Shown here piece by piece: positions 10,768 to 43,770 of a stretch of DNA of 64,000 nucleotides (the stretch's first letter is position 1; every line of letters begins with the position of its first letter). The stretch is from the NCBI GenBank assembly GCA_945482995.1, contig CALYRM010000003.1, forward strand, positions 10,150 through 74,149, written 5' to 3'. The notes beneath the pieces are model-generated. The model was not told the origin of the DNA. It did not search any database and saw nothing but the letters and a program-made list of their open reading frames with translations. This DNA is from an uncultured Clostridia bacterium (GTDB lineage Bacteria > Bacillota > Clostridia > Christensenellales > CAG-1252). The position numbers and the translations under genes are program-made.

Positions 10768-10769
10768 AT

Positions 10770-14860: not shown

Positions 14861-14862
14861 TA

Positions 14863-19371: not shown

Positions 19372-20322
19372 TTATATGTTTTCGTCCGTGTTATCCTTTT
19401 TATTTTCTTCGCTTTTCAAGTTCTTGCTAACGTCAACAGAATCTATATGCTGTTTATCAGCATTGTTATAGAGTGCCGTCAATTCGTCGTCGGAGAAGGA
19501 TAATATATTATTTTCGTCTAGGGAAAGCATAGTTAATAGCTTTTCCAAACGGGATTGTCTAAGTTGATATGTTTTATTAAGTGTTATATCCAATATTATC
19601 ATACAAGCAATTAGGGCAATTATAGTAACTATTCCTAGTGGGGATTGTACGAATAATATTATTGCGCCGATAAAGGGAATGTATTTTCCCGTGTATTTAC
19701 CTACTACGTCCTCGGGCGTGGCCTTGTATGAGTCTTCCATATTATTTGAGTCGCCTCGCGTTACAAAACGTGTATACGTTTCGGTTTTTTCGATACGAAT
19801 AATACGGTGAATGATATTGCTACCTTGTGGGTTTTTATATACGATTACATCGTATTGTTTGAGTGTTGTGGGATCTACGTCTTCGATAACAATAAGTGCG
19901 TAGGTGGGGAATTGATTGTTTAGGTTGTTTTCTATTAAATAATCATTGCTCGGATGTTTTTCGCTCATAGAGCCTGATGCAACGACAATTACGCTTTTAT
20001 TGCCAAGTTTCAACCAGCCACATTTGTCAGCTATTGCTAATCCTAAGCATGCCGCGACAACGATAATACCGATTGTAGAAAATATTCTTTTTACAATTTT
20101 TAAGGTTTTTGTTTTCTTCTTTGCTTCGGGTTTGCTTTCCTCTTTAAAGCTTTTTAAAAGCTCCAAATCGTATTCACCATCATCTATATTGTTTTTTGCA
20201 CCCTTCCGATAACGATAAAAAAGGAAGGCGAACAATATAATCAAACCCGCCATAATTACAGAAAGTATCATGATTCCCAAAAGCTGTCGTTTGCTTAGGG
20301 CTAAAAGCAAAGAATTAATCAA
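19372..20322 (-). CDS. Signal peptidase I, archaeal/ER type (SipW-like, S26B), with extra N- and C-terminal segments
   Basis: 316 aa. Catalytic Ser box VVASGSMS, His box NIIHRIIRI, and TRGDSNNMEDS box, in the same order as B. subtilis SipW. C-terminal TM as in SipW, plus a second N-terminal TM and a ~75-aa acidic tail. Confidence 0.8.
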   Translation of the reverse strand: MINSLLLALSKRQLLGIMILSVIMAGLIILFAFLFYRYRKGAKNNIDDGEYDLELLKSFKEESKPEAKKKTKTLKIVKRIFSTIGIIVVAACLGLAIADKCGWLKLGNKSVIVVASGSMSEKHPSNDYLIENNLNNQFPTYALIVIEDVDPTTLKQYDVIVYKNPQGSNIIHRIIRIEKTETYTRFVTRGDSNNMEDSYKATPEDVVGKYTGKYIPFIGAIILFVQSPLGIVTIIALIACMIILDITLNKTYQLRQSRLEKLLTMLSLDENNILSFSDDELTALYNNADKQHIDSVDVSKNLKSEENKKDNTDENI

Positions 20323-20618: not shown

Positions 20619-21671
20619 CTACTTAGGTTGTGCTGTGATTACGATAGTATACTTTGGAACTGTAATACTAGCCTCAGCTTTTTCAAGAGCATCGTTTAAG
20701 TTATCGATTTTTTCTGCCTTAGTGTTACCTGCAATGTTTGATAAGGTTTCTAAAGTGCTAAGCTTAATATCACTAGCCTTAACACTACCGCTTGTAACCA
20801 AAGGAGTGCTGGATTCGCCGAATGTATAGCCATCCAAAACGGCACCTGAATTAACGAAGTTTACAAGACGGAGCAATAATTCGGCTTCGGGTAATGTTAA
20901 ACCAGTCACTTCGTAAGACTCTGCACTGTATACAGTGGTATCACGAGAGTCCAATGTTCTGCCTGGGTTGCCAAATCCGAAAGCTTGTCCCCAACCAAAT
21001 CTAACTTCGCCATCGAATACATATGTACTGCCACTGAGTTTGTAGGTGAAGCCCTTATCTGTTATGCCTGTGGAGTCAAGAGTTGTTTCTGTCCCAATAG
21101 TAATCTTTGCTGGCGCAGTTTTGTTTTCTGTGTCGATAACGTAAGTATTTTCCGTGCCTGCTTGCTTCTTGATTGTAGGTAATGGGTTGCCGTCCATATC
21201 TACTGCATAAGACGGAAGTGTGATATAAGCTCTTTCAGAATCGTATGTCCAGTTTTCACTGTTCTTGAAGAAACCTGCAGCATTGATAACTGATTCCGGT
21301 AGTTTAACAGCGAATGTCAATTCACCAACTTTGTCGCCGTTTGAAACGTTTCCGCTAAAAGTGAAGGAAAGGTTTTCGGTGCGATTGTCTACAGTAGCTG
21401 TATGCATGATGTAACCTGTGTTGTCATTCTCTTGAGGAGCGAATACGATATCGTCAACTTTGAGTGAAGATTCTCCGACAAGGTTATCTAAATTGATTTT
21501 GATATCCGCATTGCTTACGGTAACAACGTCAACGTTGCCTTGTTCTTGAACGGTTGAACCGCTTGAAATCATCCAGGCAGCAAAACCTGTTGCAACGAGA
21601 GCGATACAAACGAATATCACTACACCAAACGTAATGGCTTTTCTGCTGAAATTTGAACGTGTTGTTTTCAT
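20619..21671 (-). CDS. Secreted beta-rich protein with SipW-cognate-like signal (GFA-AW junction), putative fibre/accessory subunit
   Basis: 350 aa. N terminus ...FVCIALVATGFAAWMISSGS. Shares C-terminal motifs with the 241-aa neighbour (FGWGQAFGFGNP versus FAWGEKGNP; KYTIVI versus KYQIHL). Confidence 0.6.
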   Translation of the reverse strand: MKTTRSNFSRKAITFGVVIFVCIALVATGFAAWMISSGSTVQEQGNVDVVTVSNADIKINLDNLVGESSLKVDDIVFAPQENDNTGYIMHTATVDNRTENLSFTFSGNVSNGDKVGELTFAVKLPESVINAAGFFKNSENWTYDSERAYITLPSYAVDMDGNPLPTIKKQAGTENTYVIDTENKTAPAKITIGTETTLDSTGITDKGFTYKLSGSTYVFDGEVRFGWGQAFGFGNPGRTLDSRDTTVYSAESYEVTGLTLPEAELLLRLVNFVNSGAVLDGYTFGESSTPLVTSGSVKASDIKLSTLETLSNIAGNTKAEKIDNLNDALEKAEASITVPKYTIVITAQPK

Positions 21672-21720: not shown

Positions 21721-22446
21721 CTAAGCACCGGTAGATGGAGCAACAGTCTCTAAGTGGATTTGATATTTACCGTCGTTTAATTTACGAACAGCGGAAAGCA
21801 TTGCGCTTGCAGCGGTTGCATTATCTTTTGAATAAGGAAGTCCGTTAAAATATGTGTACGGATTGCCCTTTTCACCCCAAGCAAACGTTATTGTAATCTC
21901 TGCAGTGTAGGTATTGCTTGCAGCAGCTGTAAAATTTTCAGCTGTCAACTCAACGAATAGGTTGTCTGCGCCCCATGCTTCTGCTTCTGCTAGATTTTTA
22001 GTTGTCCCGCCAACTTTCAAAGTTGGGTTTGCTAAATATTTAGCTGTAACAGCACTATTGAAAGCACCTGCTTCAACACCCTTGTATGAAACAGCAACCT
22101 TAAGTTTGTTTCCATTTAGCATTTGTTCTGCTGTAGTTCCGCTAACTGTTGGAGTTAAGGTAACTGTGATTTTTGCTGTCAAGGCATCGGGGGGAACGTC
22201 GGTTGCGGACAACCAACCATAGTTTGTTCCTGCGGGAGCAGCAGCTTTACCGAAAGTGATATTACCACTTGCAGCAGCGGTTGCTGTGTATGTGTAATCT
22301 TTAACTTCGTCTGCTACGAAGCTGCCACCATCAACAGTTTCGTTTACGGGGTTGACGATTAACCAAGCTGCGAAACCAATACCAACTACTGAAGCCAATA
22401 CTAGAATGGCGATGATTGGGATTAAAATTTTCTTAGTTTTTGTCAT
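21721..22446 (-). CDS. Secreted Ala/Thr/Gly-rich protein with SipW-cognate-like signal, putative major fibre subunit
   Basis: 241 aa counted from the ATG at 22446, which has a perfect RBS (aaggagataaaaaaaATG). The ORF-track start at 22512 lacks an RBS. N terminus MTKTKKILIPIIAILVLASVVGIGFAAWLIVNP. Confidence 0.6.
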   Translation of the reverse strand: MTKTKKILIPIIAILVLASVVGIGFAAWLIVNPVNETVDGGSFVADEVKDYTYTATAAASGNITFGKAAAPAGTNYGWLSATDVPPDALTAKITVTLTPTVSGTTAEQMLNGNKLKVAVSYKGVEAGAFNSAVTAKYLANPTLKVGGTTKNLAEAEAWGADNLFVELTAENFTAAASNTYTAEITITFAWGEKGNPYTYFNGLPYSKDNATAASAMLSAVRKLNDGKYQIHLETVAPSTGA

Positions 22447-22560
22447 TTTTTTTATCTCCTTTAAAATTTTGTTTTTGATTTTTTGTTTTTGACGATTTAT
22501 ATCTACACTCATAAGCCTAAAGGCTTACGAAGTGATTAACGAAATATGGCTACAATTTAT

Positions 22561-23555: not shown

Positions 23556-24257
23556 ATGGATAGAAAACTTAACGGAAAGCTGAAAAATTTATATCGAAAA
23601 ATGATTTTCGGTAAGGTGCTAATTGTACTATATATTGTACTTCCAATGCTGTTGGTTGCTACGGGCTTTTCTGCTTGGGTGATTAATACTCCTTCGTTCT
23701 CGGCTGACTTTTACGGCACAACCACTTCGAGTGCGCTTATAGATACTAGTGCATTATTAGAGGTTAAGAAGTTTGAACCCATTGAAGAATTATATTATAC
23801 AGGTCCGGTATCCGGGAATAATCTTCAAAAGCAACTTAATATAGATACGATAATAAATATAAATCCTAATAAAGTAGCGACCATAGCCCGTGAAAGCTCA
23901 AATACAATGTATTTGAAACTTACCTTAATGCTTAAGTCAAACAAGAATAATTCAGATATCTTCACACGTTTTAGCTCTAGTTTTAGCGTTACTAATACTG
24001 TCAATGGTGTAAACATCGAAGAAGTTCCTGCAACGCTAGAAAAGCCTGCAAGTACAAGTTCAACTTACAGTGTAATATACAAACTAATCTTTACTAACGG
24101 AACAAGCTTACCTGATGATTTTAGTTTGACAATTAGTCCGTCGTTTGTTCTATCACCTGAGGGTTACGCAGCGTTTTACGACTATTGTGTCAAAGGCGAC
24201 ATAGCCGAGGATCCATTCGTGCTTGACTTGCGTCTCTCCGAAAGTGCGAATATATAG
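23556..24257 (+). CDS. Secreted protein with SipW-cognate-like signal (GFS-AW junction)
   Basis: 233 aa. N terminus ...VLPMLLVATGFSAWVINTPSF. Ser/Thr/Asn-rich, beta-type composition. Confidence 0.55.
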   Translation: MDRKLNGKLKNLYRKMIFGKVLIVLYIVLPMLLVATGFSAWVINTPSFSADFYGTTTSSALIDTSALLEVKKFEPIEELYYTGPVSGNNLQKQLNIDTIININPNKVATIARESSNTMYLKLTLMLKSNKNNSDIFTRFSSSFSVTNTVNGVNIEEVPATLEKPASTSSTYSVIYKLIFTNGTSLPDDFSLTISPSFVLSPEGYAAFYDYCVKGDIAEDPFVLDLRLSESANI

Positions 24258-24810: not shown

Positions 24811-24843
24811 CAATAAATATTGATTATATGTAAGAGAAAAAGT

Positions 24844-27800
24844 ATGTATAGAGTAGATAATAAAAATAAAAAAGAATATCGTAGAGTGACTACAAAAGCG
24901 AAGTATTTTGTAGTTCTTTCGCTATTCCTTTTGTTACTACTCGTAGTAGTGGGTTCTTCTGCTTGGAATCTCCATTTGAGAGTAATCGGATTTGTCGGTG
25001 ACAATCCCGAAATTACCAACCCCGTAACCATTGTAAGCGGAACCAACGCCAACAACCTATTGCTCAAATATGTTGACTACAGCGAATTTACCGAAACAAT
25101 AGAGTATAACGGAAAAATCTATTATACATGTACATACAACGGCAACACTCATACACCGAAAATTAAAAATATAGAAGATGACGCTCGTGATTTTGATTTG
25201 ACAAAATTCAAATACGAATACACTTGCCTTTATTTGCCTAATAATACGACAAAAGGCGAATGGGTCGCCGTTAATTCTCAAACTACTATAACCGCACCAA
25301 AAGAGAGTGGTTGGTATAAAGTAGTTATTACATACTCAGATTTAGAATCGGATTTCAATTATTCTTCATATATCGGATCAGCTACACTCTACTTTGCAAT
25401 TCAACCAAAAGAAATAGAGGTTAGCGTTTCACGTTCCGAAAGCGTTTACGGTGACGCAACCAGAATTAACGAAATCGAACAGACCGTAGCTTCGGGTGTA
25501 TTGTGTGGTGCTGATACCGTTGATTCACTTAATTCTACTTTTAGCTTGCAAAGTAGGGATAATTCCCTTTCGCAAGCAAGCGAAGAAACAAACCTTTATG
25601 CAGGTGAATATAACATTGTTGGTACCGATAATTCTAGAAATTACGCTATAACCTTTAAACCAAAAATCGTAGAAGATGGTACTTACGCTTTATATACAAT
25701 CACCAAGCGACCTATTACGGTTCAGATACTTGATCAAATAAGCGTTTATGGTGATTTACCTTTTGACTTTGCTAATTTAGATAACTTGAATAATAATAAA
25801 GTTGCCAAGATTAGCGTTAATACCTTGGCTTATTCTGACAAAGTTAGCGACGTAATAAGTGTTTCATGCGGATTAACTCTATTGGAAAATGAAAAAACAA
25901 TTACCTCTAATGTAGGTGAATATCCTATTGTTGGTATTAATATCAACGACAACTACGAGGTTACGTTTGCAAATGGTTCTTGGACTGATTCTGCAGAATG
26001 TGGTACTTATACAATAACAAAAGCACCTCTTAACATGACGGCAACATCATTTAAACTCACATATGGTGCTGAAATGCCCACTTATTCCGTTACATATGAA
26101 GGCTTTAAAAATGGCGAAACCAAGAATGTTATTGTCGGCAATCCGTCATTTACATGCACTTATGTGCCAAATAAGCAAAACGGTTCGGTAAGGACGTATA
26201 GCATTACACCGAGCTTGGACGAACAAACTAACTATGAAATTAATCCGATAGACGGTACTTTAACCGTTAGCAAAAAAGCGCTAACGATTACTCTTGACAG
26301 TAAATCAACCCATTATGGCGAAAAGGCTCCTGCATTTACTTGTACGCCAACAGGCTTTGTTTATAGCGAAAGTTTTACAACATATAAGTCTGATTTCAGC
26401 TTAGAGAATTATGTAACCGATGATTATACAGTCGGCGACTCTATTGGCGAATATAATATAGCTTGGTCAATATTGGAGAGTGAACTCGAATACATTTTAA
26501 CAAATTATGACTGCACTCTTGTAGCAAATAAATTGACTGTAAATGCTCGTCCTATATCAGTAACAATAGATGATAAGTCGAGCGTGTACGGTGCTAATCC
26601 CGTTTCTCTTACTGCAACCGTAGCCGTTACTCAAGGCTATACATTGACGGGAAATCCGATTTATGGTACAGATAATCCATATACGTTATCAACTTCCGTT
26701 ACCAATACTATCGGTTTTGGTACATATCCTATTGTAGGTACAAGAGAGAATAGCAATTACGATATTACCTTTGTCGGCACATTCGAAAAAAACAAAGGAA
26801 CTTATACCGTAACTAAAAAAGCAATTTCAATAGTATGGTCTAATACTTCGTTTACCTATGACGGCAGCTCTCACAAACCAGTGGCAACAGCAGGGGGGTT
26901 AGTGAATGGCGATGATTGCACGATAAACGTTTCGGGTGAAAAAACAAATGCAGGAAGCTATATCGCAACTGCAGAAAATGTATCAAATTCAAATTACATC
27001 TTGCCGACTACAAATTTGACCGCAAGCTTTACAATTGCTCCAAAGGACGTAACGATTACTTGGACGAATATTTTGTTTACTTATGATGGAAAATATCATA
27101 AACCTACTGCAACGGCAGGGGGCTTAGTAGACGGCGATGATTGCACGATAAACGTTTCGGGTGAAAAAACAAATGCAGGAAGCTATATCGCAACTGCAGA
27201 AAATGTATCAAATTCAAATTACATCTTGCCGACTACAAATTTGACCGCAAGCTTTACAATTGCTCCAAAGGACGTAACGATTACTTGGACGAATATTTTG
27301 TTTACTTATGATGGAAAATATCATAAACCTACTGCAACGGCAGGGGGCTTAGTAGACGGCGATGATTGCACGATAAACGTTTCGGGTGAACAAATAAACG
27401 CAAATACCGATTCAAACCCAACGTATACCGCTACCGCTTCTATTGTCAAGGGCGAAGTAATCGACAATAACTACAAAATTATAGAAAGAGGGACTCAAAA
27501 TTTCACGATTGAAAAGGCACCTTTGACAATTACAGCCGAAGACAAAACAACTTTGGTTGGTGTCGAACCTCCCGAATTTACCGTAAAGTATGATGGCTTT
27601 GTGAATGGCGAAACGCAATCGGTATTAGGTGGAGAATTGACGTTTGCTGCGATTGATTCTTCTATTACTGCTACCGCCGGCGAATATGTTGACGTTATTG
27701 TTCCAATGGGACTTACCTCTGATAACTATGATATATCATTTGTAAGCGGTAAACTTACAGTAGTTAATGGATTCGAAAAACCTACGATCGGTAACAACAG

Positions 27801-30800
27801 CTTTGTTTACAACGGAACAACCATAGAATATTTACCTGATGGATTTGATCCAATTAAAATGGCTATTTCGGGCAATTCCGCAACCGACGCAAACACATAT
27901 ACCGCTACGGTAACCCCTCTTAACGGTGCTGTTTGGGCTGATTACACTTCCACCGCTCTGACTTTTGAGTGGACTATCACTCAAGCTACTACGGTAATTA
28001 GCGGAAATCTTTCTATAGATAATTGGACTTATGGCGGTACGGCAAGTACCCCATCGGGCTTAAGCACAAACTTTGGCGACATTCAATATCAATATTCTTC
28101 GGAGCAAAACGGTACTTACTCGACTACACAGCCCTCTAATGCGGGTAACTATTATGTTAAAGGCGTCGTCGTCGGAAATGATAATTATACTTCCGCCGAG
28201 ACAGCGCCTGTAGCTTTCACGATTGAAAAGGCAATAATTGATAAGCCAACCGAAGGCAATAGTACGTTTAATTACGATGGTACCGAAAAAACTTATACTC
28301 CCGAAGGCTTTAATCCAAATACTATGGTTATAACCAATGTAAATCAAACAAATTCAGGTAATTATAGATCGGTAGTAACTCCACAAGATAATTATAAATG
28401 GGCGGATGATGCGGAAGTTGCCTTTATTTGGCATATTACTAAAAAAGAAATTGATATAACCAACAAAACAATCGAGATAGTTTATTCTACAGATAAACGT
28501 ACATGGCAAAGTATTGAAGAATATATTCGAGCACAATTAGTAGTTTCCGATAAATGCGGAAGTGACGATGTATATGTTAATACAGGTAATTTGACAAACG
28601 GAATAATAACTTATACATATAATGGAAGTACTTATAGTGGAAAGGTTGAACAAAGCTATGGCTCAGATATGGGGCTTAATGACAGCTATTTAAAAAATCA
28701 ATTTGTAGGTAGCACATATATTGGTACATCACTGTCTTTGGGTGGTGTCGCTAAAAATAATTATTCGATTAAGGGCGATAGATATTACTTTAAGTATAAA
28801 ACAGCAAGTGTAGGTGGTACATATTATACAATAGAAGACGCAATTCACGACGGAACTACTAATACTATAACCTTCCCCGGTGATGCTTCTACTGCAACAT
28901 CATACGTTTTGACATGCTTCAGCAATATAGAATTGCCTAATGAAGAAACTCTTTCGTCAAATTCGACGCTAAACGCATTCTTCGCAAATTATAAGTCAAA
29001 ATCGCATGAAATTTCGGGAAGGACTTTGTTAGTTCCGTATGAAAATTCGGAAAATGTAATCAAAGGTGAAAAAAATCCATCAAATGTATCAAATGTAAAG
29101 CTCAACGTATATTCTGCTCTTATTATACCATCGGGAATCAGTATTACGTTTAAGAACAGTGCAAGTCTTAAAGTTGGTTCACATATTACCGCTCCGGAAA
29201 ACGGTTTTGCTACGCAAAACCCAACGCCAAACAATCAGTCCGGTATTAGAGAACACGGAGTTATTGTAAATGATGGCAAGCTAACTTTTGAAAGTGGTAC
29301 TTCGATATATTCTTATGGATATATAAAATCAAGTTCGATTACTAGCCAAGGCAGTATTATAGCTCAAAGCGGAGTTCAAGTAAGAGAATATATGTATATC
29401 CACTCATGGCCGGGCGGAACCGCTGCAAGTGCAATATATTCAAAAGTTTTTCCTACGAATGCTTGGTCTTTGCATAATATCTCGTGCACTATTCAGATAA
29501 ATGCAGGCGCTCAGTATTATGCATATGCCGCCGTAACAGCTTCAATTATTGGATATACTAAAGCGGAAGCTTTGGTTATAGGAAAACAAGGCGATACAAA
29601 TTGTATTTTTATCCCCGATTATGATAAAGCAAATTACAATCAAAATAGTTACATAATCAAATCGACAAAGCCTGCTGCAAGTTGGAGTAGTACTTCGGCT
29701 GAATATAAGCAATTGTATAATATAGTCGGCGCTAATTATTTAAGTGGTCAAAAAGATATAATTGAAATTTACGGTGATTATACAGATAGAACTTTATTGG
29801 TGGACGTTGGCGCTAAGTTAAAAACATCAACGGAAATATCTGCACCTCTTGGATATATGGATGTGACTATCGATAATGGCTCAACCTTGAATTTGATCAA
29901 TTCCGATTATCTTTTCCTTCCCGGAACCAAGTTATTTGTTGAGAAAGGTGCAAACTTAATTATCAACAATGAAGTTGACGTTGTATTCCTTGATTATAAT
30001 ACGCTAAAGTCACATGGTGGTAATGGCTTTAAGTTCGATACTTTCTGCAAAGATAAGGTAGATGCTTATGCCGTAATAAATGGCAATATAGAAATCTATG
30101 GACGTATTGGTGGAAAAATAACATCGACGGAAGAAGGGGCAAGTATGGTTTTCCATACAATACAAGTGGGTGCTAATTACAATCTAATGAAGTCCAGTGA
30201 TGAACCCCGTTATATTGTTGGAGAAAAATATAGGGCTACAGCTAATGTTCTTGGTGTAGATAACACAATTCTTACTTCAGGAAGATATTGTACAGCCACA
30301 ATAGACAATGCAATAACTTGGATGGCTACAACTGGTACAATTGTTTTTGATCAAAACTATGGTGATAATAGCGTGATTAAATCAATGGAAAATATAGATA
30401 TGCCATATACGCTAAATGTTGCTGATTATCCTTCAAATCCTACAAGAGCTTTATATAGCCTTGATGTAGATGGAAATGGTAATACGCAGTGGTATTTAGA
30501 CAAAGAGTGTTCTCAACCTATTGCACCCGAAACTATTTTATACGCAGGCACCACGCTTTATGCAAAGTGGATACCAATAAGCTATAAGGTCAACTATCAA
30601 TATGTTTATGGAACAAATGTTACTGAGGCTGACGTTGGGTTGGATAATCCTATAGATGATTTATATATTACTGCTGAAAGTGGTATTATTATTAATAGTC
30701 TATTAAACATCGATGATATAGATAAGACGGTTGAAGGCTATTCCTTAACAGGTTGGTATGTAGACAGTGATTGTCGAACTAATGTTGATAATGCTTTTGA

Positions 30801-32553
30801 ATTGTTATCGGCATCTTCTTCGTTGACTGAAAGTACCATAACCGTTTATGGTAAATGGGATGTATATGTACCGTCATTTAAGGTTGAGTATTCAACAGGC
30901 GTAGGTGTAGCTCCCGCCGCTATGGATTACAGTACGGATATTGTCTTAATCGAATCTCAAGAAGGTTGGCAACCTTCTAAAAACGGCTCTTCTTTTGATA
31001 GGGATACAGCTGTAGATTATTATTTTGACGGTTGGTATATAGACGAAAACTGTACTACGAGTTTTACCAGTTTTTCGGGTGTAAATATGAATGAAACACA
31101 GCACCTCTACGCAAAATGGACTAAAAAGAACATACTTAATATTTGCATATCCGATGGTAGTGTTTATGATACGAGACGCTACAAGCCGGGAACCACATTC
31201 ACCATTCCTGCGCTTCCACCTGTAATAGTGCCTAAAGAAGGACAATACATTTATTGGACATTGAATGGCGCTACTGATAGTTCACAAGGAGAGTTGGTAG
31301 CAGATTCTCAATGTACACTTGTTGATAGTACCAAAGTTGTATTACACATTTTGGATAGATATGAAATAACGACAAGCTTAACTAATTCTAGTGTAATCAT
31401 ATATTACTCCGGTCACTATAGCATTAACGGAAGTGATGTCGAATATAGCGAAACCTATAGCATAACTTCAAAGACAAACCAAGATCCTTGCTTCTACGCA
31501 TATAGCGACGGACAAATAACAAATATTGATGTAACATGGAAACAGACGGACTCTCGAACTTTAACTGTTAATGGTGCAAACTATGATGATAACTCAAATG
31601 CCACTATAAAAATATCAGCCAAAACTACAATAGTTGCATCATCTTCAGGTGTTTGTTTAGCAGAAGGTACGCTGATTACACTTGCCGATGGTACACAAAA
31701 GAAAGTGGAGGATTTGAATTATGACGACGTTTTACTTGCATTCAACCACGTAACAGGACAATATGAGGCAAGTCCGCTATTGGTTAATTTGCATGCTCAA
31801 GAATCAAGCCGTTTGTGCAGAATTATTTATCTTGATTTCTCAGATGGAACAAGAATCGGTATAATTGGAGAACATTCATTCTTTGATATAGACGAAAATA
31901 AATATGTATATATTGATGAAGATACAGTTAAGAATCATATTGGGCATAGATTTGTCAAGGTTAAACAAATTGACGGAAGGTTTGTATCCGAAGAAGTTGT
32001 TCTTAATGAATACAATATAGTTGAAAAGACTATGAGAGTGTTTTCACCAGTAAGTGGTCAAATTAATGTTGTTACTGAGGGCTTGCTAAGCTTTACCGAA
32101 GTTCTTACAGCAGAAGGACCTACTCACGGTGTAATCAACATTTTCGAGTTTGGTGAAAACTTGAAGTATGATGAAGTTAAGATGCAGGAAGACATCGATA
32201 AGTATGGTCTGTATACATACGATGACTATAAAGCATACTTGACATATGAAGAGTTTATATCATTCCCGTGGGCATATTTCAAAGTTTCAGTAGGAAAAGG
32301 ACGTCTAACATGGGATGATATTCTTTGGAACATTCAATATATCCATAACGATAGAATGGAACAAATGGGAATGACTCAAGAAAATCAAACAACAAGTGGT
32401 GAAGTCGTTAATTCGGAACAAAACAACACACCTCAGAATAGCGACACTACAAATGAAAACCCATTTGAAACCGTTGCACTTCCACCGCCGACAACTTCCA
32501 CCTCGTCAGGTAGTGGCGGTGATAGCGACAACTCAAACGACGGCGAATCGTAA
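24844..32553 (+). CDS. Giant surface adhesin-like protein: SipW-cognate-like signal, multiple MBG domains, beta-helix-like core, Listeria-Bacteroides repeats, C-terminal Hint (intein-like) domain
   Basis: About 2569 aa from the ATG at 24844 (the ORF track starts at TTG 24820). N terminus ...LLLLLVVVGSSAWNLHL. Repeated xYGxxxP...AGEYxI...NYxIxxxxGxLTIxK modules (MBG-like). GWY...LYAKW modules. CLAEGTLITLADG...GEHSFF...IHN Hint block at residues 2279-2510 (track numbering). Confidence 0.85.
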   Translation: MYRVDNKNKKEYRRVTTKAKYFVVLSLFLLLLLVVVGSSAWNLHLRVIGFVGDNPEITNPVTIVSGTNANNLLLKYVDYSEFTETIEYNGKIYYTCTYNGNTHTPKIKNIEDDARDFDLTKFKYEYTCLYLPNNTTKGEWVAVNSQTTITAPKESGWYKVVITYSDLESDFNYSSYIGSATLYFAIQPKEIEVSVSRSESVYGDATRINEIEQTVASGVLCGADTVDSLNSTFSLQSRDNSLSQASEETNLYAGEYNIVGTDNSRNYAITFKPKIVEDGTYALYTITKRPITVQILDQISVYGDLPFDFANLDNLNNNKVAKISVNTLAYSDKVSDVISVSCGLTLLENEKTITSNVGEYPIVGININDNYEVTFANGSWTDSAECGTYTITKAPLNMTATSFKLTYGAEMPTYSVTYEGFKNGETKNVIVGNPSFTCTYVPNKQNGSVRTYSITPSLDEQTNYEINPIDGTLTVSKKALTITLDSKSTHYGEKAPAFTCTPTGFVYSESFTTYKSDFSLENYVTDDYTVGDSIGEYNIAWSILESELEYILTNYDCTLVANKLTVNARPISVTIDDKSSVYGANPVSLTATVAVTQGYTLTGNPIYGTDNPYTLSTSVTNTIGFGTYPIVGTRENSNYDITFVGTFEKNKGTYTVTKKAISIVWSNTSFTYDGSSHKPVATAGGLVNGDDCTINVSGEKTNAGSYIATAENVSNSNYILPTTNLTASFTIAPKDVTITWTNILFTYDGKYHKPTATAGGLVDGDDCTINVSGEKTNAGSYIATAENVSNSNYILPTTNLTASFTIAPKDVTITWTNILFTYDGKYHKPTATAGGLVDGDDCTINVSGEQINANTDSNPTYTATASIVKGEVIDNNYKIIERGTQNFTIEKAPLTITAEDKTTLVGVEPPEFTVKYDGFVNGETQSVLGGELTFAAIDSSITATAGEYVDVIVPMGLTSDNYDISFVSGKLTVVNGFEKPTIGNNSFVYNGTTIEYLPDGFDPIKMAISGNSATDANTYTATVTPLNGAVWADYTSTALTFEWTITQATTVISGNLSIDNWTYGGTASTPSGLSTNFGDIQYQYSSEQNGTYSTTQPSNAGNYYVKGVVVGNDNYTSAETAPVAFTIEKAIIDKPTEGNSTFNYDGTEKTYTPEGFNPNTMVITNVNQTNSGNYRSVVTPQDNYKWADDAEVAFIWHITKKEIDITNKTIEIVYSTDKRTWQSIEEYIRAQLVVSDKCGSDDVYVNTGNLTNGIITYTYNGSTYSGKVEQSYGSDMGLNDSYLKNQFVGSTYIGTSLSLGGVAKNNYSIKGDRYYFKYKTASVGGTYYTIEDAIHDGTTNTITFPGDASTATSYVLTCFSNIELPNEETLSSNSTLNAFFANYKSKSHEISGRTLLVPYENSENVIKGEKNPSNVSNVKLNVYSALIIPSGISITFKNSASLKVGSHITAPENGFATQNPTPNNQSGIREHGVIVNDGKLTFESGTSIYSYGYIKSSSITSQGSIIAQSGVQVREYMYIHSWPGGTAASAIYSKVFPTNAWSLHNISCTIQINAGAQYYAYAAVTASIIGYTKAEALVIGKQGDTNCIFIPDYDKANYNQNSYIIKSTKPAASWSSTSAEYKQLYNIVGANYLSGQKDIIEIYGDYTDRTLLVDVGAKLKTSTEISAPLGYMDVTIDNGSTLNLINSDYLFLPGTKLFVEKGANLIINNEVDVVFLDYNTLKSHGGNGFKFDTFCKDKVDAYAVINGNIEIYGRIGGKITSTEEGASMVFHTIQVGANYNLMKSSDEPRYIVGEKYRATANVLGVDNTILTSGRYCTATIDNAITWMATTGTIVFDQNYGDNSVIKSMENIDMPYTLNVADYPSNPTRALYSLDVDGNGNTQWYLDKECSQPIAPETILYAGTTLYAKWIPISYKVNYQYVYGTNVTEADVGLDNPIDDLYITAESGIIINSLLNIDDIDKTVEGYSLTGWYVDSDCRTNVDNAFELLSASSSLTESTITVYGKWDVYVPSFKVEYSTGVGVAPAAMDYSTDIVLIESQEGWQPSKNGSSFDRDTAVDYYFDGWYIDENCTTSFTSFSGVNMNETQHLYAKWTKKNILNICISDGSVYDTRRYKPGTTFTIPALPPVIVPKEGQYIYWTLNGATDSSQGELVADSQCTLVDSTKVVLHILDRYEITTSLTNSSVIIYYSGHYSINGSDVEYSETYSITSKTNQDPCFYAYSDGQITNIDVTWKQTDSRTLTVNGANYDDNSNATIKISAKTTIVASSSGVCLAEGTLITLADGTQKKVEDLNYDDVLLAFNHVTGQYEASPLLVNLHAQESSRLCRIIYLDFSDGTRIGIIGEHSFFDIDENKYVYIDEDTVKNHIGHRFVKVKQIDGRFVSEEVVLNEYNIVEKTMRVFSPVSGQINVVTEGLLSFTEVLTAEGPTHGVINIFEFGENLKYDEVKMQEDIDKYGLYTYDDYKAYLTYEEFISFPWAYFKVSVGKGRLTWDDILWNIQYIHNDRMEQMGMTQENQTTSGEVVNSEQNNTPQNSDTTNENPFETVALPPPTTSTSSGSGGDSDNSNDGES
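26911..27390 (+). repeat. Perfect 225-bp (75-aa) tandem duplication inside the giant gene
   Basis: 26941-27165 is identical to 27166-27390. The 30 nt before the first copy also match the unit end, so 26911-27165 equals 27136-27390. Confidence 0.95.
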
Positions 32554-32755: not shown

Positions 32756-32784
32756 TTGACATATATTTTTTGTGTGTTTATAAT
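32756..32784 (+). promoter_or_regulatory. Consensus sigma-A promoter TTGACA-17-TATAAT
   Basis: ttgaca tatattttttgtgtgtt tataat, about 40 nt upstream of the ABC exporter ATG (RBS aaggtgaagaaATG). Confidence 0.75.
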
Positions 32785-32826: not shown

Positions 32827-34614
32827 ATGAGTAAGAAATTGAAAAAGGAAAAGAAACAATCAATTCCTTTGATTAAAACGCTTGCACAAAGTATCAAAGA
32901 ATACAAAAAGGCATCGATTTTGGCACCTATATTTGTTATTTTGGAAGTTGTTTTGGAGGTATTGATTCCTTATATCACTACTTATTTGGTTGATTTCGGT
33001 ATCAAAAAGGGCGATATGAACGCTATACTTAAATATGGCGGTTTTTTGGTTTTGTCGGCAGTTGTCGCTCTTGTATGCGGAGCTATGTCGGGCAGGTTTG
33101 CGGCAATAGCTTCCGCCGGATTTGCTTCCAATTTAAGAAGGGATATGTATTATAACATTCAAAGATTTTCATTTGCGAATATCGACAAGTTCTCTACGGC
33201 AAGTTTGATAAACCGTATTACAAAGGACGTTGTAGAAATGCAAAATACATACGCAATGCTTATAAGAATTGCATTCCGTGCGCCGATTATGCTTGTATTC
33301 GCCATGGCAATGTCTTTTACTATCAACAATTTCGTACCGCTTATATTCCTTGCTGTTATACCTGTTTTGGGTGTTGTCGTATTTGTACTTATGCGTACGG
33401 TTAAGCCGTTGTTTGAAAGTATGTTCAAGCGCTTTGACGACCTAAACGTTGTGGTGGAAGAAAACCTTTTGGGTATGCGTGTTGTTAAGTCTTATGTAAG
33501 AGAAGAGCACGAAATTAAGAAATTCAACAAAATTTCCGAAGCAATCTACAAAATAGGTAGCAAGGCAATGAAGATTATGTCGTTTACGAACCCCATAATG
33601 ACGCTATGTATTTATGCGGTAATGCTTTTCATTTGCGGATATTCGGCTAACTTGATTGTAAGTTCCTCGGGCGTTGAAATGACGGTAGGCGATCTTACCG
33701 GCTTGTTGACCTACGTAATGCAGATAATGATGAACCTACTTATGACCTCAATGGTTATTGTAATGGTTTCTATTTCTCGTCCTGCGGCAGAGAGAATTGC
33801 CGAAGTTTTGGTTGAAAAGCCAACTATTGAAAATCCCGAAAACCCGATTAACGAGGTTGCGGACGGTAGTATCGACTTTAATAACGTTAACTTCCGTTAT
33901 TCTGAAAAAGCAGAGCGTTTTGCACTAGAAGGAATTAACTTATCCATTAAATCGGGCGAAACTGTGGGTATATTAGGGTCAACCGGTAGCTCAAAAACTA
34001 CGTTGGTACAGCTTATACCTCGTTTGTACGACACAACCGAGGGCGAAGTATTAGTCGGCGGTGTGAACGTCAAGGATTATGACCTAACTGTTTTGAGAGA
34101 TAACGTTGCAATGGTACTTCAAAAGAACACCTTGTTTAGCGGTACGATTGCCGAAAACTTGAGATGGGGTAATGAAAACGCAACGGATGAGGAAATTCAA
34201 GAGGCTTGCCGACTTGCGCAAGCGGATTCATTTATTGAGGGCTTCCCCGATAAATACCAAACTCACATCGAACAGGGTGGTACCAATGTTTCGGGCGGAC
34301 AAAAGCAAAGATTGTGTATTGCAAGGGCTTTATTGAAAAAACCTAAGATATTGATTTTGGACGACTCCACTTCGGCAGTTGACACCAAGACCGACGCATT
34401 AATAAGAGATTCTTTCAAGAAGATAATTCCCGGCACTACAAAAATTATCATTGCACAAAGAGTTTCGAGCATTGAGGACGCAGATAAGATTGTTATTTTG
34501 GATGACGGACAAATAAGCGCGGTAGGCACGCACGAAGAATTGTTAAAGACAAGCGAGATTTACCAAGAGGTATATTATTCGCAAGTCAAAGGGGGCGAAG
34601 ATGAGCAAGAATAG
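32827..34614 (+). CDS. ABC exporter permease/ATPase, heterodimer subunit with degenerate Walker B (LILDD)
   Basis: 595 aa with 6 TM plus an NBD. Walker A GSTGSSKTT, signature VSGGQKQRL, Walker B ILILDDSTSAVD (Asp in place of the catalytic Glu). Confidence 0.9.
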   Translation: MSKKLKKEKKQSIPLIKTLAQSIKEYKKASILAPIFVILEVVLEVLIPYITTYLVDFGIKKGDMNAILKYGGFLVLSAVVALVCGAMSGRFAAIASAGFASNLRRDMYYNIQRFSFANIDKFSTASLINRITKDVVEMQNTYAMLIRIAFRAPIMLVFAMAMSFTINNFVPLIFLAVIPVLGVVVFVLMRTVKPLFESMFKRFDDLNVVVEENLLGMRVVKSYVREEHEIKKFNKISEAIYKIGSKAMKIMSFTNPIMTLCIYAVMLFICGYSANLIVSSSGVEMTVGDLTGLLTYVMQIMMNLLMTSMVIVMVSISRPAAERIAEVLVEKPTIENPENPINEVADGSIDFNNVNFRYSEKAERFALEGINLSIKSGETVGILGSTGSSKTTLVQLIPRLYDTTEGEVLVGGVNVKDYDLTVLRDNVAMVLQKNTLFSGTIAENLRWGNENATDEEIQEACRLAQADSFIEGFPDKYQTHIEQGGTNVSGGQKQRLCIARALLKKPKILILDDSTSAVDTKTDALIRDSFKKIIPGTTKIIIAQRVSSIEDADKIVILDDGQISAVGTHEELLKTSEIYQEVYYSQVKGGEDEQE

Positions 34615-36520
34615 TAACCCTGCAATGAAAAAAGGAAAATCGGAAATTCAAGCCGGAACATTGAAGAGAATTTTGTCATATATCTTTGAGGATAAAGCAA
34701 AAATCGCTTTGGTTTTTTTCTGCATTGTTTTTGCATCAATAAGCGGTGTAGTCGCTTCATATTTTATCCAATTTATTGTCAATGAATGTGAAACGCTAAT
34801 TGCAGAAGGTATAACCGCCTTTGATAGTTTTTGGAAATACCTAATTATAATGGCGTTATGCTATTTATTCGGTGTTGTTTGCAATTTTATCTTTAACCTT
34901 ATTATGCGACAGTTATCTCAAAAGGTTATGGCTAGCATAAGAGAAGATATGTTCGCAAAAATGCAAAAGCTTCCGATTAAGTTTTTCGATACGCACAACA
35001 AGGGCGACTTAATGAGCCGCTTTACCAACGATACCGAAACCCTAAGAGAACTTGTTTCGGACAGCTTACCAACGATATTGACTACTTCGCTAACGGTAAT
35101 CGCGTCCTTTGTTGCAATGCTTTTAACGAGTATTTACTTAACCTTAATCGTATTATGTGTGCTTGCCGTAATGCTTGTAGTAATCAAGGTTGTAGGCGGT
35201 AGAACAGGTAAATATTATGTCGAGCAACAAAAGGCTGTCGGTAAAGTCAACGGCTTTATCGAAGAAATGATAAACGGTCAAAAGGTTATCAAGGTATTCA
35301 ATCACGAAGAGAATGCAAAGAGGGATTTTGATAAGGTAAACGAAGTATATCGTCAAAGCTCAACTAAAGCTAATATATTTGCAAATATCTTTATGCCTAT
35401 TATGGGCAATATGGGACACCTACAATATGTTTTGATCGCTGTTTTCGGCGGATTGATGGCTATTAACAGTGTTCAAACCCCAAGCTTAAAGGGTATGATA
35501 CCTTTGACTTTGGGTTCAATTATAGCGTTCTTGAATTTGAGCAAGAGCTTCACGAACCCATTAAGTCAAATGTCACAACAAATCAACCAAGTTATGATGG
35601 GTTTAGCCGGCGCAGACAGAGTATTCAGAATGATGGACGAACTACCCGAGGTAAACGAGGGCTATGTATATTTGGTAAGCGCAGAATATAACGAGAACGG
35701 CGAGCTTGTCGAAGCCAATCACCGTACAGGGACTTGGGCTTGGAAACATTATCACAAAGACGACGGCACAACTACCTTGAAGCTTTTAGAGGGCGACATT
35801 ACCTTGAACGAAGTCGATTTTGCATACGATCCCGAAAAACCGGTTTTGCACGACGTTACCTTGTATGCGAAACCGGGTCAAAGAATTGCGTTTGTCGGCG
35901 CTACGGGCGCAGGCAAAACCACAATTACCAATTTGTTGAATAGATTCTACGATATTGCTGATGGTAAAATTCGTTATGACGGAATAAATATCAACAAAAT
36001 CCGTAAAGAGGACTTGCGTAGATCGTTGGGTATAGTTCTGCAAGATACCAACCTTTTCACGGGAACGATTATGGAAAATATCCGTTATGGTAGACTTGAT
36101 GCAACCGATGAAGAGGTTATCGCTGCGGCAAAAATGTCGCACGCTGACGACTTTATCAAGAGATTACCCGAAGGGTATAACACTATGTTGACTTCAAACG
36201 GCGCAAACCTTTCGCAAGGTCAAAGACAGCTTTTATCAATAGCAAGAGCCGCTGTTGCCGATGCTCCCGTTATGATTCTTGACGAGGCGACTTCAAGCAT
36301 TGATACTCGTTCGGAATTGCTTGTTCAAAGAGGTATGGATAACCTTATGAAGGGAAGAACGGTATTTGTAATAGCGCATAGATTGTCTACCGTCAAGGGT
36401 AGCGACGTAATAATGGTGCTTGATCACGGCAGAATAATCGAGCGTGGCACGCACGAACAACTGATTGCCGAAAAGGGCGTTTATTATAGGCTCTATACCG
36501 GTGCATTTGAGTTAGAATAA
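34601..36520 (+). CDS. ABC exporter permease/ATPase, heterodimer subunit with canonical Walker B and deviant signature (LSQGQ)
   Basis: 639 aa. Walker A GATGAGKTT, signature LSQGQRQLL, Walker B MILDEATSSID. 14-nt overlap with the upstream subunit gene. Confidence 0.9.
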   Translation: MSKNSNPAMKKGKSEIQAGTLKRILSYIFEDKAKIALVFFCIVFASISGVVASYFIQFIVNECETLIAEGITAFDSFWKYLIIMALCYLFGVVCNFIFNLIMRQLSQKVMASIREDMFAKMQKLPIKFFDTHNKGDLMSRFTNDTETLRELVSDSLPTILTTSLTVIASFVAMLLTSIYLTLIVLCVLAVMLVVIKVVGGRTGKYYVEQQKAVGKVNGFIEEMINGQKVIKVFNHEENAKRDFDKVNEVYRQSSTKANIFANIFMPIMGNMGHLQYVLIAVFGGLMAINSVQTPSLKGMIPLTLGSIIAFLNLSKSFTNPLSQMSQQINQVMMGLAGADRVFRMMDELPEVNEGYVYLVSAEYNENGELVEANHRTGTWAWKHYHKDDGTTTLKLLEGDITLNEVDFAYDPEKPVLHDVTLYAKPGQRIAFVGATGAGKTTITNLLNRFYDIADGKIRYDGININKIRKEDLRRSLGIVLQDTNLFTGTIMENIRYGRLDATDEEVIAAAKMSHADDFIKRLPEGYNTMLTSNGANLSQGQRQLLSIARAAVADAPVMILDEATSSIDTRSELLVQRGMDNLMKGRTVFVIAHRLSTVKGSDVIMVLDHGRIIERGTHEQLIAEKGVYYRLYTGAFELE

Positions 36521-42398: not shown

Positions 42399-43652
42399 TT
42401 AAATCGTGTTAATTGTACCGATAAATAGGGGAACGTTGTATTCTTTGTCAAGTATCATATAAACAAAAGGCTTGTCTAAATATATTTCCTTGATTTTTGG
42501 TTCGATACTAGGCGGAGCAGACGTTACTTCCATTCCGATTGAGGTTACTGCCGCAGCTTTAACACCATCTCGGCTTAATTCAAAGTGCGTTTTGTGATTT
42601 ACATAAGAAACAAAAACATTATCTTCTGTGTCCCAAGCTCTTGAAAAATCGGCATCAATTTCCGAAAATGCGTCGACCATACCTAAATCCATAAGGTTTT
42701 GTTTTAAATTTACGGAATAATCAAAATCAAAGTACGGAACAAAGGTTTTAACAATGTCATAGCTTGTATTTTCATTATTTAATAGTGTATATAGCTCGTC
42801 TTTATCAAATACATCAAGATATTCGCCTAATTCTACTTTTGGTTTTATTCCTAAGAAACAAAATCTATTATTCTTGAAATAATACTTAAAGGCTTCTGCG
42901 TTGTTACTTTCGAAAAATGATGCTTGCTTTTTGTATCCACCTTCAACAAATCGTATAGATCCATCTTTATATGTGAACATATGCTCTCCGTCATTTAATG
43001 CTCTTGTCCAATTATCCTCGAATACTAAGGCGTTGATTATTTGCATAATGGTGTATGGGGAATAGCTTTCGACGACTTTATCAATCATACCTCTTGTCTT
43101 TTCCTTTACCCAAGCATTTGTTTGTTTAACAGTATCATTGTTGAAAAGAGCTTTGATTATTTCAGCGTCATAGTACGCTGCGGCATTATCAATAAAATCT
43201 TGCTTTGGAGTAAAGGACTCCTTAAACCAAACCGAGTTAGCAATTTGTACGGTTTGTGCGTTGGTCTCGTCGTCCTGATAAAGCGAATATAGGTATGCAG
43301 AATATTCGTTGATTTCCGTAGGCGTTAAGTGCATAACGTCTGCAATTTGGTTTAATGTTTCGTTGGCTGCGCCGTTTGAGAGTATCGCGAACGCAATGTA
43401 AACCGATAACGGCGAAATACATGTGTTTTGGGTGTTGTCTAACGTTTCGAATAGGTCAATGGAAAAATCGTTGATTGCGTCCATATATTTCGATGTAGAC
43501 AAAACTTCGCTGTATGGACGTGACAAATTGATTTCCATAGGTGCAGGCTTGACCGTCTGGTTGTTTTCCGCTGAGTCTTGACAGCCTGCTAATGAACCAA
43601 GCAGTACTACGCCAATAATTGCTATTATCAATATCTTGTAGATTTTTTTCAC
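42399..43652 (-). CDS. Serpin-family protease inhibitor lipoprotein
   Basis: 417 aa from the GTG at 43652 (RBS ggaggctaatGTG; the track ATG at 43688 has no RBS). Lipobox LAGC. SPLSVYIAFAILSNGAANETL serpin N-motif. Hinge-like GVKAAAVTS before the C-terminal PFVYMI. Confidence 0.8.
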   Translation of the reverse strand: MKKIYKILIIAIIGVVLLGSLAGCQDSAENNQTVKPAPMEINLSRPYSEVLSTSKYMDAINDFSIDLFETLDNTQNTCISPLSVYIAFAILSNGAANETLNQIADVMHLTPTEINEYSAYLYSLYQDDETNAQTVQIANSVWFKESFTPKQDFIDNAAAYYDAEIIKALFNNDTVKQTNAWVKEKTRGMIDKVVESYSPYTIMQIINALVFEDNWTRALNDGEHMFTYKDGSIRFVEGGYKKQASFFESNNAEAFKYYFKNNRFCFLGIKPKVELGEYLDVFDKDELYTLLNNENTSYDIVKTFVPYFDFDYSVNLKQNLMDLGMVDAFSEIDADFSRAWDTEDNVFVSYVNHKTHFELSRDGVKAAAVTSIGMEVTSAPPSIEPKIKEIYLDKPFVYMILDKEYNVPLFIGTINTI

Positions 43653-43770
43653 ATTAGCCTCCAAATACAATAAAAGTGCAAAGCGCAATTTCGGATTCTG
43701 TGATTATTTGGTGTACTTCTTTTTTTAATGTCCGTTTTTTTTGAACATTTATTGAATAATCTCATTTGCT

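Follow-up and report, generated by a model that had tools for sequence, protein, structure and literature searches.

A predicted Hint domain with a conserved acidic extension ends giant surface proteins of gut Firmicutes in a Hedgehog-like layout

How might a giant surface protein without a recognisable wall anchor be attached, and what might its last 300 or so residues do? This question is raised by a 64,000-nucleotide stretch (the window) of contig CALYRM010000003.1 from an uncultured Clostridia bacterium, in which an uninterrupted open reading frame (ORF; 24820..32553, + strand) encodes an adhesin-like repeat protein. Public assemblies start it at the ATG at 24844, giving the 2569 aa used for numbering here; the first-pass annotation of the same DNA counted from a TTG at 24820, which adds 8 to every residue number, so that our Cys2271 is its C2279. 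The cargo ahead of the C-terminal module comprises ~2,270 aa and is rich in Ig-like repeats. A Pfam scan recognised 8 MBG_2 and Flg_new repeats, with Hint sub-threshold only, and detected no LPXTG, SLH, LysM or cell-wall-binding domain in this protein. We tentatively favour, with a probability of roughly 40%, a reading in which the last ~300 residues are a Hedgehog-type (Hog-like) module: a Hint domain followed by a conserved C-terminal domain (CTD) that selects the nucleophile, so that the adhesin's C-terminus would be transferred and not merely hydrolysed. The features on which the argument turns are as follows.

24844..32553, + strand: giant surface protein gene (ORF list and translation; 2569 aa from the ATG)
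31633..31653, + strand: Ser/Gly-rich linker VASSSGV, ending at the predicted scissile bond between Val2270 and Cys2271
31654..32094, + strand: Hint module, 147 aa (AlphaFold2 (AF2) model, Foldseek, family profile, column conservation)
31654-31656, + strand: Cys1 of the Hint module, in the context SSSGV/CLAEGTLITLADGTQKKVEDL
31873-31875, + strand: block-B His of the Hint module within GIIGEHSFFDI (translation)
31942-31953, + strand: conserved G-H-x-F of the Hint module
ending at 32094, + strand: block F/G equivalent '...SGQINVVTEGLLSF', without a terminal His-Asn
32095..32136, + strand: variable connector TEVLTAEGPTHGVI (hmmalign insertion and alignment with close relatives)
32137..32349, + strand: acidic helical CTD of ~75 aa, NIFEFGENLKYDEVKMQEDIDKYGLYTYDDYKAYLTYEEFISFPWAYFKVSVGKGRLTWDDILWNIQYIHN (AF2 helices, conservation)
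32350..32550, + strand: low-complexity acidic Ser/Thr/Asn/Gly tail, 67 aa (translation; stop at 32551)

A homologue search gave 53 relatives, and the AF2 model of the C-terminal region built on their alignment reached a mean predicted local distance difference test score (pLDDT) of 94.2 and a predicted template modelling score (pTM) of 0.90. In this model residues 8 to ~164 are all beta, four helices follow within 181-245, and linker residues 1-4 have a pLDDT <50. Foldseek against the PDB returned more than 50 intein, Hedgehog C-terminal (HhC) and bacterial intein-like (BIL) structures at a probability of 1.00, all of them Hint structures, with target TM-scores of ~0.8 over ~150 columns and E-values from 2e-8 to 1e-5. 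These included the Mtu RecA, DnaB and DnaE inteins, Hedgehog HhC (6tyy, 1at0), Tetrahymena BIL2 and the Clostridium thermocellum BIL 2lwy. The family profile matched BIL2 (6Y75/6TMM) over the whole Hint at E = 9e-8 and Hedgehog at E = 0.003. On the window protein itself the curated models stayed below threshold (PF01079 Hint 18.4-18.6 bits, gathering cut-off 29.7; PF14890 Intein_splicing 16 bits, cut-off 35.8; TIGR01445 sub-threshold), and the Hint assignment therefore needed profile and structure evidence. Among 54 family members, 31 matched Pfam Hint (PF01079, the best-matching model), 15 Hom_end_hint and 10 Hint_2, and two matched PT-HINT weakly.

The catalytic positions are strongly conserved, beyond what chance would give. 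Cys1 is found in 188 of 192 aligned family members, the remaining four being gaps, and the block-B His in all 192, while the Thr of the block-B TxxH motif is not conserved and is replaced by Ile or Val. Judged by the model, the C-terminal region of the giant holds a genuine Hint fold, with the predicted horseshoe beta fold of ~140-160 aa, block-A nucleophile and block-B His that characterise the Hint superfamily. The first-pass annotation had proposed a Cys-initiated Hint domain with block A and GIIGEHSFFDI, and both the translation and the predicted fold from its C2279 onwards bear this out. The likeness to BIL-type domains that it anticipated is seen in the BIL2 profile match and the C. thermocellum fold match; a Pfam assignment succeeded for the 31 relatives and failed for the window protein. 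The linker in front of Cys1 is rich in Ser, Gly, Asp and Asn at positions -5 to -1 across the family, and position -1 is Ser in 91, Gly in 35 and Asn in 21 of the 192 members, which makes the Val of the window protein atypical.

The first-pass annotation had taken residues 2279-2510 as a single Hint domain closing with YIHN; its start stands, while the end has to be moved ~85 residues upstream, to GLLSF. The profile alignment sets '...FANGVLAH(N)' of inteins and BIL2 opposite '...adGlLS-[ML]-P' of the family and 'EGLLSF' (32080-32094; with the following Thr 'EGLLSF-T', 32080-32097) of the window. The intein His-Asn position is thereby occupied by Ser149-Met150-Pro151 in the family and by S-F-T in the window; the terminal-Asn position is Pro in 169 of 192 members, and the chain runs on beyond it. 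YIHN is present in the translation and is followed by Asp, as had been noted. It ends at 32349, ~85 residues past the end of the Hint fold, and corresponds to model residues 236-239, within the last of the alpha-helices (227-245). In the family alignment this stretch varies or is filled by gaps, most members terminate within a few residues of this point, and the closest homologue (68% identical) has YIQE instead. Since YIHN is embedded in a helix beyond the Hint and is unconserved, cyclisation of its Asn (2510 when counted from the TTG) is unsupported, and we have dropped the earlier proposal of a 232-aa intein/BIL-like domain whose Asn2510 cyclises to release the 67-aa tail; the His-Asn followed by Asp does occur in the sequence, and the proposal is nonetheless barely conceivable. 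Its statement that canonical splicing is impossible holds, for there is neither a His-Asn at the last Hint strand nor a C-extein after this C-terminal module.

The same features separate the module from the other processing Hint classes. Type B BILs are reportedly defined, in work of Amitai and colleagues from 2003, by type-specific C-terminal motifs. Inteins and A-type BILs are internal and retain His-Asn (PMC5874633), while the module, with no His-Asn at its last Hint strand, no +1 Cys/Ser/Thr on a C-extein and a terminal position in place of insertion into a conserved host protein, lacks the hallmarks of a class 1 intein. BILs in general are Hint domains of variable secreted bacterial proteins that self-cleave instead of splicing and lack the +1 nucleophile (PMC5874633); they are internal and flanked on both sides, with His-Asn kept in type A, whereas the module of the family is confined to the C-terminus, shows Pro where the Asn would be and includes a conserved extra domain. 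A terminal module without His-Asn does not have the features of type A, whose Hints lie inside variable regions and undergo C-terminal cleavage or aminolysis-type splicing. The closest solved sequence relative is BIL2 of Tetrahymena BUBL (6Y75/6TMM), whose thioester is resolved, as we propose for the family, by a non-canonical nucleophile: the N-extein is passed to a Lys epsilon-amine, giving an isopeptide (PMC8616854). Unlike the family, BIL2 has retained the terminal His-Asn, is flanked by ubiquitin-like domains on both sides and has no CTD; it is eukaryotic and cytoplasmic.

What follows the Hint is a second conserved unit. After the connector TEVLTAEGPTHGVI, which exceeds the family consensus 'PGGIEGLF' by 6 residues, the AF2 model places the CTD helices at residues 181-191, 205-210, 213-221 and 227-245. 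The CTD is as strongly conserved as the Hint (mean pairwise identity 0.52 versus 0.50), is near-invariant at N159, F161, D177, I178, Y181, G182, L183, K212, G213 and T216 (family numbering), and has a mean net charge of ~ -9. Modelled alone it reached a pLDDT of 86, and this model gave 0 Foldseek matches against the PDB; no match to Pfam or NCBIfam was found either. We regard the CTD as a previously undescribed conserved domain and, by analogy with Hog proteins, as a candidate 'adduct-recognition' region. The Asn at family column 159 (window 32137-32139), within 'GLFNIFE', is shared by 185 of 192 members and lies eight residues past the intein-Asn position; a second cleavage between Hint and CTD may be possible.

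The low-complexity tail of the window protein (T10 S10 N9 E7 G6 D5 Q5 P5, no Lys; ending in GSGGDSDNSNDGES) was read correctly in the first-pass annotation as 67 aa at 32350-32550, although the weight given to it there is not justified, as ~90% of family members end ≤10 residues past the CTD. A minority (P0120, P0160, P0170, L050, L054, L066) have tails in which a hydrophobic residue and L/I-P-(P)-x-x-S/T precede an acidic end of 10-20 aa, and the window tail at 32470-32550, 'ALPPPTTSTSSGSGGDSDNSNDGES', fits this loose pattern ('ALPPPTTSTSS...DGES'). A sortase signal in 'LPPPTTS' was considered and rejected, given that no transmembrane (TM) segment or basic tail follows and that the motif is missing in most members.

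The combination of Hint and CTD is widespread. An exhaustive hidden Markov model (HMM) search over 1.84 billion cluster representatives (50% identity clusters) gave 10,374 matches at E<=1e-3 and 2,341 at E<=1e-30, so that the two form a single conserved unit in no fewer than 2,341 protein clusters. Among the top 150 matches, the module nearly always forms the last ~230 residues of proteins of 1,000-5,645 aa. A scan of one genome per species with two peptide patterns confirmed 378 loci, the best 80 of which underlie all locus counts given here; the module lies ≤10 residues from the C-terminus in ~171 of 190 representatives and in 74 of the 80 loci. Nearly all of these 80 belong to gut or rumen Clostridia (Christensenellaceae, Oscillospiraceae, Ruminococcus) and Bacilli (RF39/'Mollicutes', Acholeplasmatales, Erysipelotrichaceae). 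The cultured Pumilibacter muris is among the carriers (locus L033), and several metagenome-assembled genomes have two or more paralogues. Where the proteins are named at all, the source annotation reads 'hypothetical protein', and no description of the family was found in the literature searched. Minimal members also exist (P0048, of 255 aa on a 145-kb Clostridia contig, P0007, P0008 and P0010), in which ~10-25 residues precede the Cys and Hint-CTD; these may be fragments, mis-called starts or stand-alone modules with a peptide cargo.

Conservation of the whole C-terminal region bears directly on another possible role, in which the Hint would deliver the CTD, alone or together with the tail, to target cells as an effector or toxin. 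Secreted bacterial toxins often have a HINT domain directly ahead of the toxin domain at their C-terminus (PMC3482391, PMC3417536), where such pre-toxin domains precede polymorphic toxin domains with adjacent immunity genes (PMC3482391), and the weak PT-HINT matches of two of the 54 members point the same way. The C-terminal region of the family is not polymorphic, however, with a CTD identity at least that of the Hint. The CTD is an acidic helical bundle of 75 aa without a toxin-family match, release of the C-terminal part would need the terminal Asn that is absent here, and no conserved immunity-like gene lies downstream, the next genes in the window being a separately promoted ABC exporter pair. 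We therefore rejected the polymorphic-toxin reading, which is very improbable given the conserved CTD and the lack of a conserved adjacent gene.

A much closer parallel is offered by Hedgehog. The Hog domain is defined as a Hint followed by a sterol or adduct recognition region (SRR/ARR) (PMC2362128), and in Hedgehog this extension recruits cholesterol to attack the Hint thioester, whereupon the N-terminal part is transferred to cholesterol (PMC7906309). Hog proteins and the family are alike in having a signal peptide, a secreted cargo, a small residue before the Cys, a Hint of ~150 aa and a helical extension of ~70 aa with which the protein ends; both lack the terminal Asn and a C-extein. PF01079 is the best Pfam model, and HhC structures (6tyy, 1at0) are among the top folds. 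A C-terminal Hint with a conserved extension of ~60-80 aa on a signal-bearing protein, the architecture of Hog, is thus what we find. On the other hand, the family is bacterial (gut Firmicutes), with giant adhesin-like repeat proteins as cargo; its extension, the CTD, is strongly acidic, and no likeness to the SRR could be detected in either sequence or structure; and position -1 is Ser, Gly or Asn, in contrast to an invariant Gly in Hedgehog, with the catalytic Asp of Hedgehog missing in the window protein. As the CTD has no detectable SRR homology, the resemblance is one of architecture, and membership of the Hog group is not established. If Hint-CTD proteins form an adduct at all, it is unlikely to be a sterol. 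The first-pass annotation had suggested an N-terminal thioester followed by cleavage or by Hedgehog-like transfer, and this remains the most plausible predicted chemistry in view of Cys1, the block-B His and the conserved extension. The Hedgehog analogy is indeed stronger than was realised there, because a conserved non-Hint extension follows the Hint as the SRR/ARR does in Hog proteins.

According to the mechanism that we propose, the Hint would fold after export, and Cys2271 would attack the Val2270 carbonyl in an N-to-S acyl shift aided by the block-B His2344, yielding a thioester. An external nucleophile would then resolve it, positioned by the acidic helical CTD packed on the Hint in the way of the SRR/ARR of Hog proteins. 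The new C-terminus of the adhesin would pass to an acceptor, and a Hint-CTD-tail fragment of ~33 kDa would be discarded. The likeliest acceptors would be an amine or hydroxyl of the cell envelope, or a small co-encoded leader-bearing partner or fibre protein. Formation of a thioester at the Val-Cys bond, followed by transfer or hydrolysis, is likely because Cys1 and the block-B His are invariant, a terminal Asn and a C-extein are lacking, and the location is extracytoplasmic. As the terminal Asn is lacking and there is no partner for splicing, such a thioester would have to be resolved by an external nucleophile. The module also occupies the C-terminus of exported proteins throughout the family, and from this whole set of features we infer the cleavage itself, the recruitment of the nucleophile by the CTD and the nature of the acceptor.

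Several observations weigh against transfer in its Hedgehog-type form, some of them concerning the window protein and its sub-clade. The position equivalent to Hedgehog Asp303 (Cys+45), the general base required there for transfer, was placed by a low-probability hhalign alignment to HhC. It is Asp or Glu in 157 of 192 members (82%), which speaks for transfer in the family at large; it is Leu in the window and its sub-clade, with a His adjoining it in the window. The block-F His, present in 172 of 192 members, is replaced by Gln with a 1-residue deletion in the sub-clade; this change is common to the two closest relatives and is therefore not a pseudogene lesion. Position -1 is Val in the window, and Val or Leu across the sub-clade, instead of Ser, Gly or Asn, and a beta-branched Val at this position usually slows the N-S acyl shift. 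Judged from the sequence, the three changes may slow or gate the reaction of the window protein. At the family level, no similarity between the CTD and the SRR of Hedgehog could be detected, and an hhalign comparison of the family with Drosophila HhC aligned Hint residues 1-86 only, at a probability of 24%. The CTD charge of ~ -9 disfavours binding to an anionic membrane or to teichoic acid. No transferase, acceptor or partner gene is universally adjacent, the commonest neighbour occurring at 13 of the 80 loci. Finally, simple hydrolysis would account for the same sequence data.

In such hydrolytic autoproteolysis, water would resolve the Hint thioester, and the outcome would be maturation or regulated shedding of the adhesin; the CTD would cap the fold, assist export or hold the adhesin non-covalently until the loss of this tether sets it free. 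This reading rests on the same structural and conservation evidence as transfer, self-cleavage at either end with no ligation has been reported for BIL domains (PMC5874633), and both the lack of a universally linked acceptor or transferase gene and the missing Asp303 equivalent of the window protein suit it. We regard it as the main rival, though as somewhat less likely than transfer. Throwing away a 230-aa module for no chemical gain fits poorly with its conservation in at least 2,341 clusters, as does a CTD conserved as strongly as the catalytic Hint; an acidic CTD is an unlikely tether for anionic Gram-positive walls; and Hedgehog, the only comparable architecture, uses its extension to direct transfer (PMC7906309).

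The substitutions in the sub-clade could also be taken to mean that the Hint is not constitutively cleaved. It would then serve as a structural or binding tip, as a ligand-binding head, or as a latent thioester 'warhead' fired by a host or target nucleophile. The loss of the block-F His and the Val or Leu at -1 could slow or gate the reaction, and the module terminates a protein of ~2,270 aa rich in Ig-like repeats. Yet Cys1 and the block-B His are invariant, the sub-clade of the window included, and this invariance points to selection for catalytic activity; in AXH and other relatives of the Hint known to be non-catalytic, both residues have been lost. A non-catalytic role is accordingly improbable.

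We thus return to Hedgehog-type transfer as the preferred reading. In its most general form the Hint-CTD module would be a bacterial counterpart of Hedgehog autoprocessing, that is, a self-contained, sortase-independent ligase moving the C-terminus of giants to an acceptor chosen by the CTD. We hold this broader claim to be possible though doubtful; peptidoglycan or lipid II amines, a co-encoded SipW-processed fibre subunit and a host or target nucleophile are candidate acceptors. Sortases anchor proteins through an acyl-enzyme thioester at the mature C-terminal residue that is attacked by a lipid II amine, and adhesins with thioester domains (TEDs) react with host amines through an internal Cys-Gln thioester. 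Both are functional analogues only, in that they likewise attach surface proteins covalently by way of a thioester. In the family, by contrast, the proposed thioester would be formed in cis by the protein's own Hint, and there is no LPXTG, C-terminal TM segment, TED fold or homology to either system.

If the C-terminus is transferred, how the protein leaves the cell and which proteins accompany it become relevant. The leader and the gene neighbourhood of the giant are made up as follows.

16148-17443, - strand: 431-aa Zn-ribbon protein
17443-19266, - strand: 607-aa membrane protein with a weak AAA_5 match
19372..20322, - strand: archaeal-type/SipW-like signal peptidase I gene (TIGR02228 82.3 bits, cut-off 51.85; NF046067 SipW 70 bits)
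20619-21671, - strand: 350-aa protein, leader 'GFAAWMI'
21721-22512, - strand: 263-aa protein, leader 'GFAAWLI'
23556..24257, + strand: 233-aa leader-bearing protein, leader LVATGFSAWVINTP ('GFSAWVI'), directly upstream of the giant and co-oriented
24904..24966, + strand: N-terminal hydrophobic leader/TM segment of the giant, KYFVVLSLFLLLLLVVVGSSAW, ending G-S-S-A-W ('VVVGSSAWNL')
32827-36520: heterodimeric ABC exporter genes downstream of the adhesin, with their own promoter

Export signals occur on the cargo throughout the family, as hydrophobic/TM leaders, lipoboxes, pilin-like N-methyl leaders, classical signal peptides or SipW-type signals. A leader motif [GASC]-x-[ST]-x-W-[ILVM]-[ILV] is present in 44 of 122 full-length members and in the three small neighbours of the giant, which itself has a variant of it. 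'TFAWFTD'-type leaders start P0098, P0101, P0129, P0131 and P0154, and lipobox or type IV pilin-like N-methyl leaders were seen in P0040, P0087 and P0193. From this variety of leader types we conclude that the module has been paired with several export routes. The model for SipW-dependent signal peptides (TIGR04088, threshold 19 bits on the N-terminus) was passed by P0098 (26.9 bits) and P0101 (21.5 bits), while the window giant and its three small neighbours gave no match, the 'GFSAW[IV]I' leader type being unmatched by it. The leader of the giant is probably a cleavable SipW-type signal. The statement in the first-pass annotation that no anchor is visible had overlooked this N-terminal leader/TM segment; if it is cleaved, the protein is anchorless again.

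The block of genes for the 263-aa, 350-aa, SipW-like, 607-aa and 431-aa proteins is syntenic directly downstream of Hint-CTD giants at two other loci (L024, L040). In the window and at L010, L013, L028, L030, L040, L076, L084, L085 and L086, the giant is directly preceded by a co-oriented gene for a small protein of 190-260 aa with the same leader. These small proteins are 25-40% identical among themselves and have no family assignment; they are candidate partners or acceptors of the giant. A PDB sequence search with the 350-aa and 607-aa proteins gave no matches, and clustering of the ORFs around the 80 loci revealed no universal partner gene (commonest in 13/80).

The cluster of a SipW-like peptidase with small leader proteins looks like a fibre or export system in the style of TasA/SipW, without detectable TasA homology. 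As in Bacillus TasA/TapA/SipW, a SipW-type peptidase gene stands beside small secreted proteins that have a special leader in common, and some Hint-CTD members pass the SipW-cognate signal model; the small proteins of the window, in contrast, lack detectable TasA/camelysin similarity and their leaders are unmatched by TIGR04088. We know of no Hint in the Bacillus TasA/SipW system, where SipW removes the leaders of TasA and TapA. The SipW-like peptidase in the cluster implies that the leader, the only visible anchor of the giant, would be removed and that the protein would have to be attached in some other way. That the Hint joins its C-terminus to the wall, or to a small partner or fibre, is an attractive hypothesis.

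Other genes of the window are associated more loosely or not at all. The genes at 9667-15684 (- strand) encode an ABC ATPase (14863-15684), a permease-like protein of 530 aa, a secreted protein of 832 aa and a lipoprotein of 366 aa in which a Flg_new repeat occurs; homologues of all of them adjoin Hint-CTD giants, at 7-13 of the 80 other loci. We rejected the ABC exporter downstream as a partner of the module, as it has its own perfect promoter and no synteny at other loci; a perfect sigma-70 consensus (TTGACA, 17 nt, TATAAT) lies at 32756-32784, 43 nt upstream of the exporter genes, and no intrinsic terminator was detected after the adhesin gene. Within the adhesin gene, near-identical MBG-type units form a 225-bp tandem repeat (26884-27402; 2.3 copies, 97% identical), which suggests that the repeat has recently expanded or recombined. 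The window also holds, at 42399-43688 (- strand), a bacterial serpin gene (PF00079, E 2e-63). A Spo0A gene at 47008-47757 (- strand) identifies the contig as coming from a Firmicute of a sporulating lineage; the bacterium is of Clostridia type, with a GC content of ~39%.

The known Hint domains comprise inteins, BILs, toxin-releasing peptidases and the autoprocessing domain of Hedgehog. To our knowledge, eukaryotic Hog proteins are the only ones in which a Hint has been characterised together with a conserved terminal extension that steers its thioester to a particular nucleophile. The present analysis defines a very large unannotated bacterial family with a Hog-like layout, whose members are the largest surface proteins that abundant gut Firmicutes possess. 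Hydrolysis alone would still predict processing of these 'hypothetical' adhesins at a defined site between Ser/Gly and Cys. If transfer takes place, it would provide a sortase-independent route for covalent surface attachment or fibre assembly, as well as a compact, self-contained C-terminal ligation tag for protein engineering. Should the CTD indeed make the module a ligase, it would give thousands of proteins in gut Clostridia and Bacilli a general means of anchoring or assembly, and would be a candidate prokaryotic relative of the Hog architecture that would bear on the origin of Hog itself.

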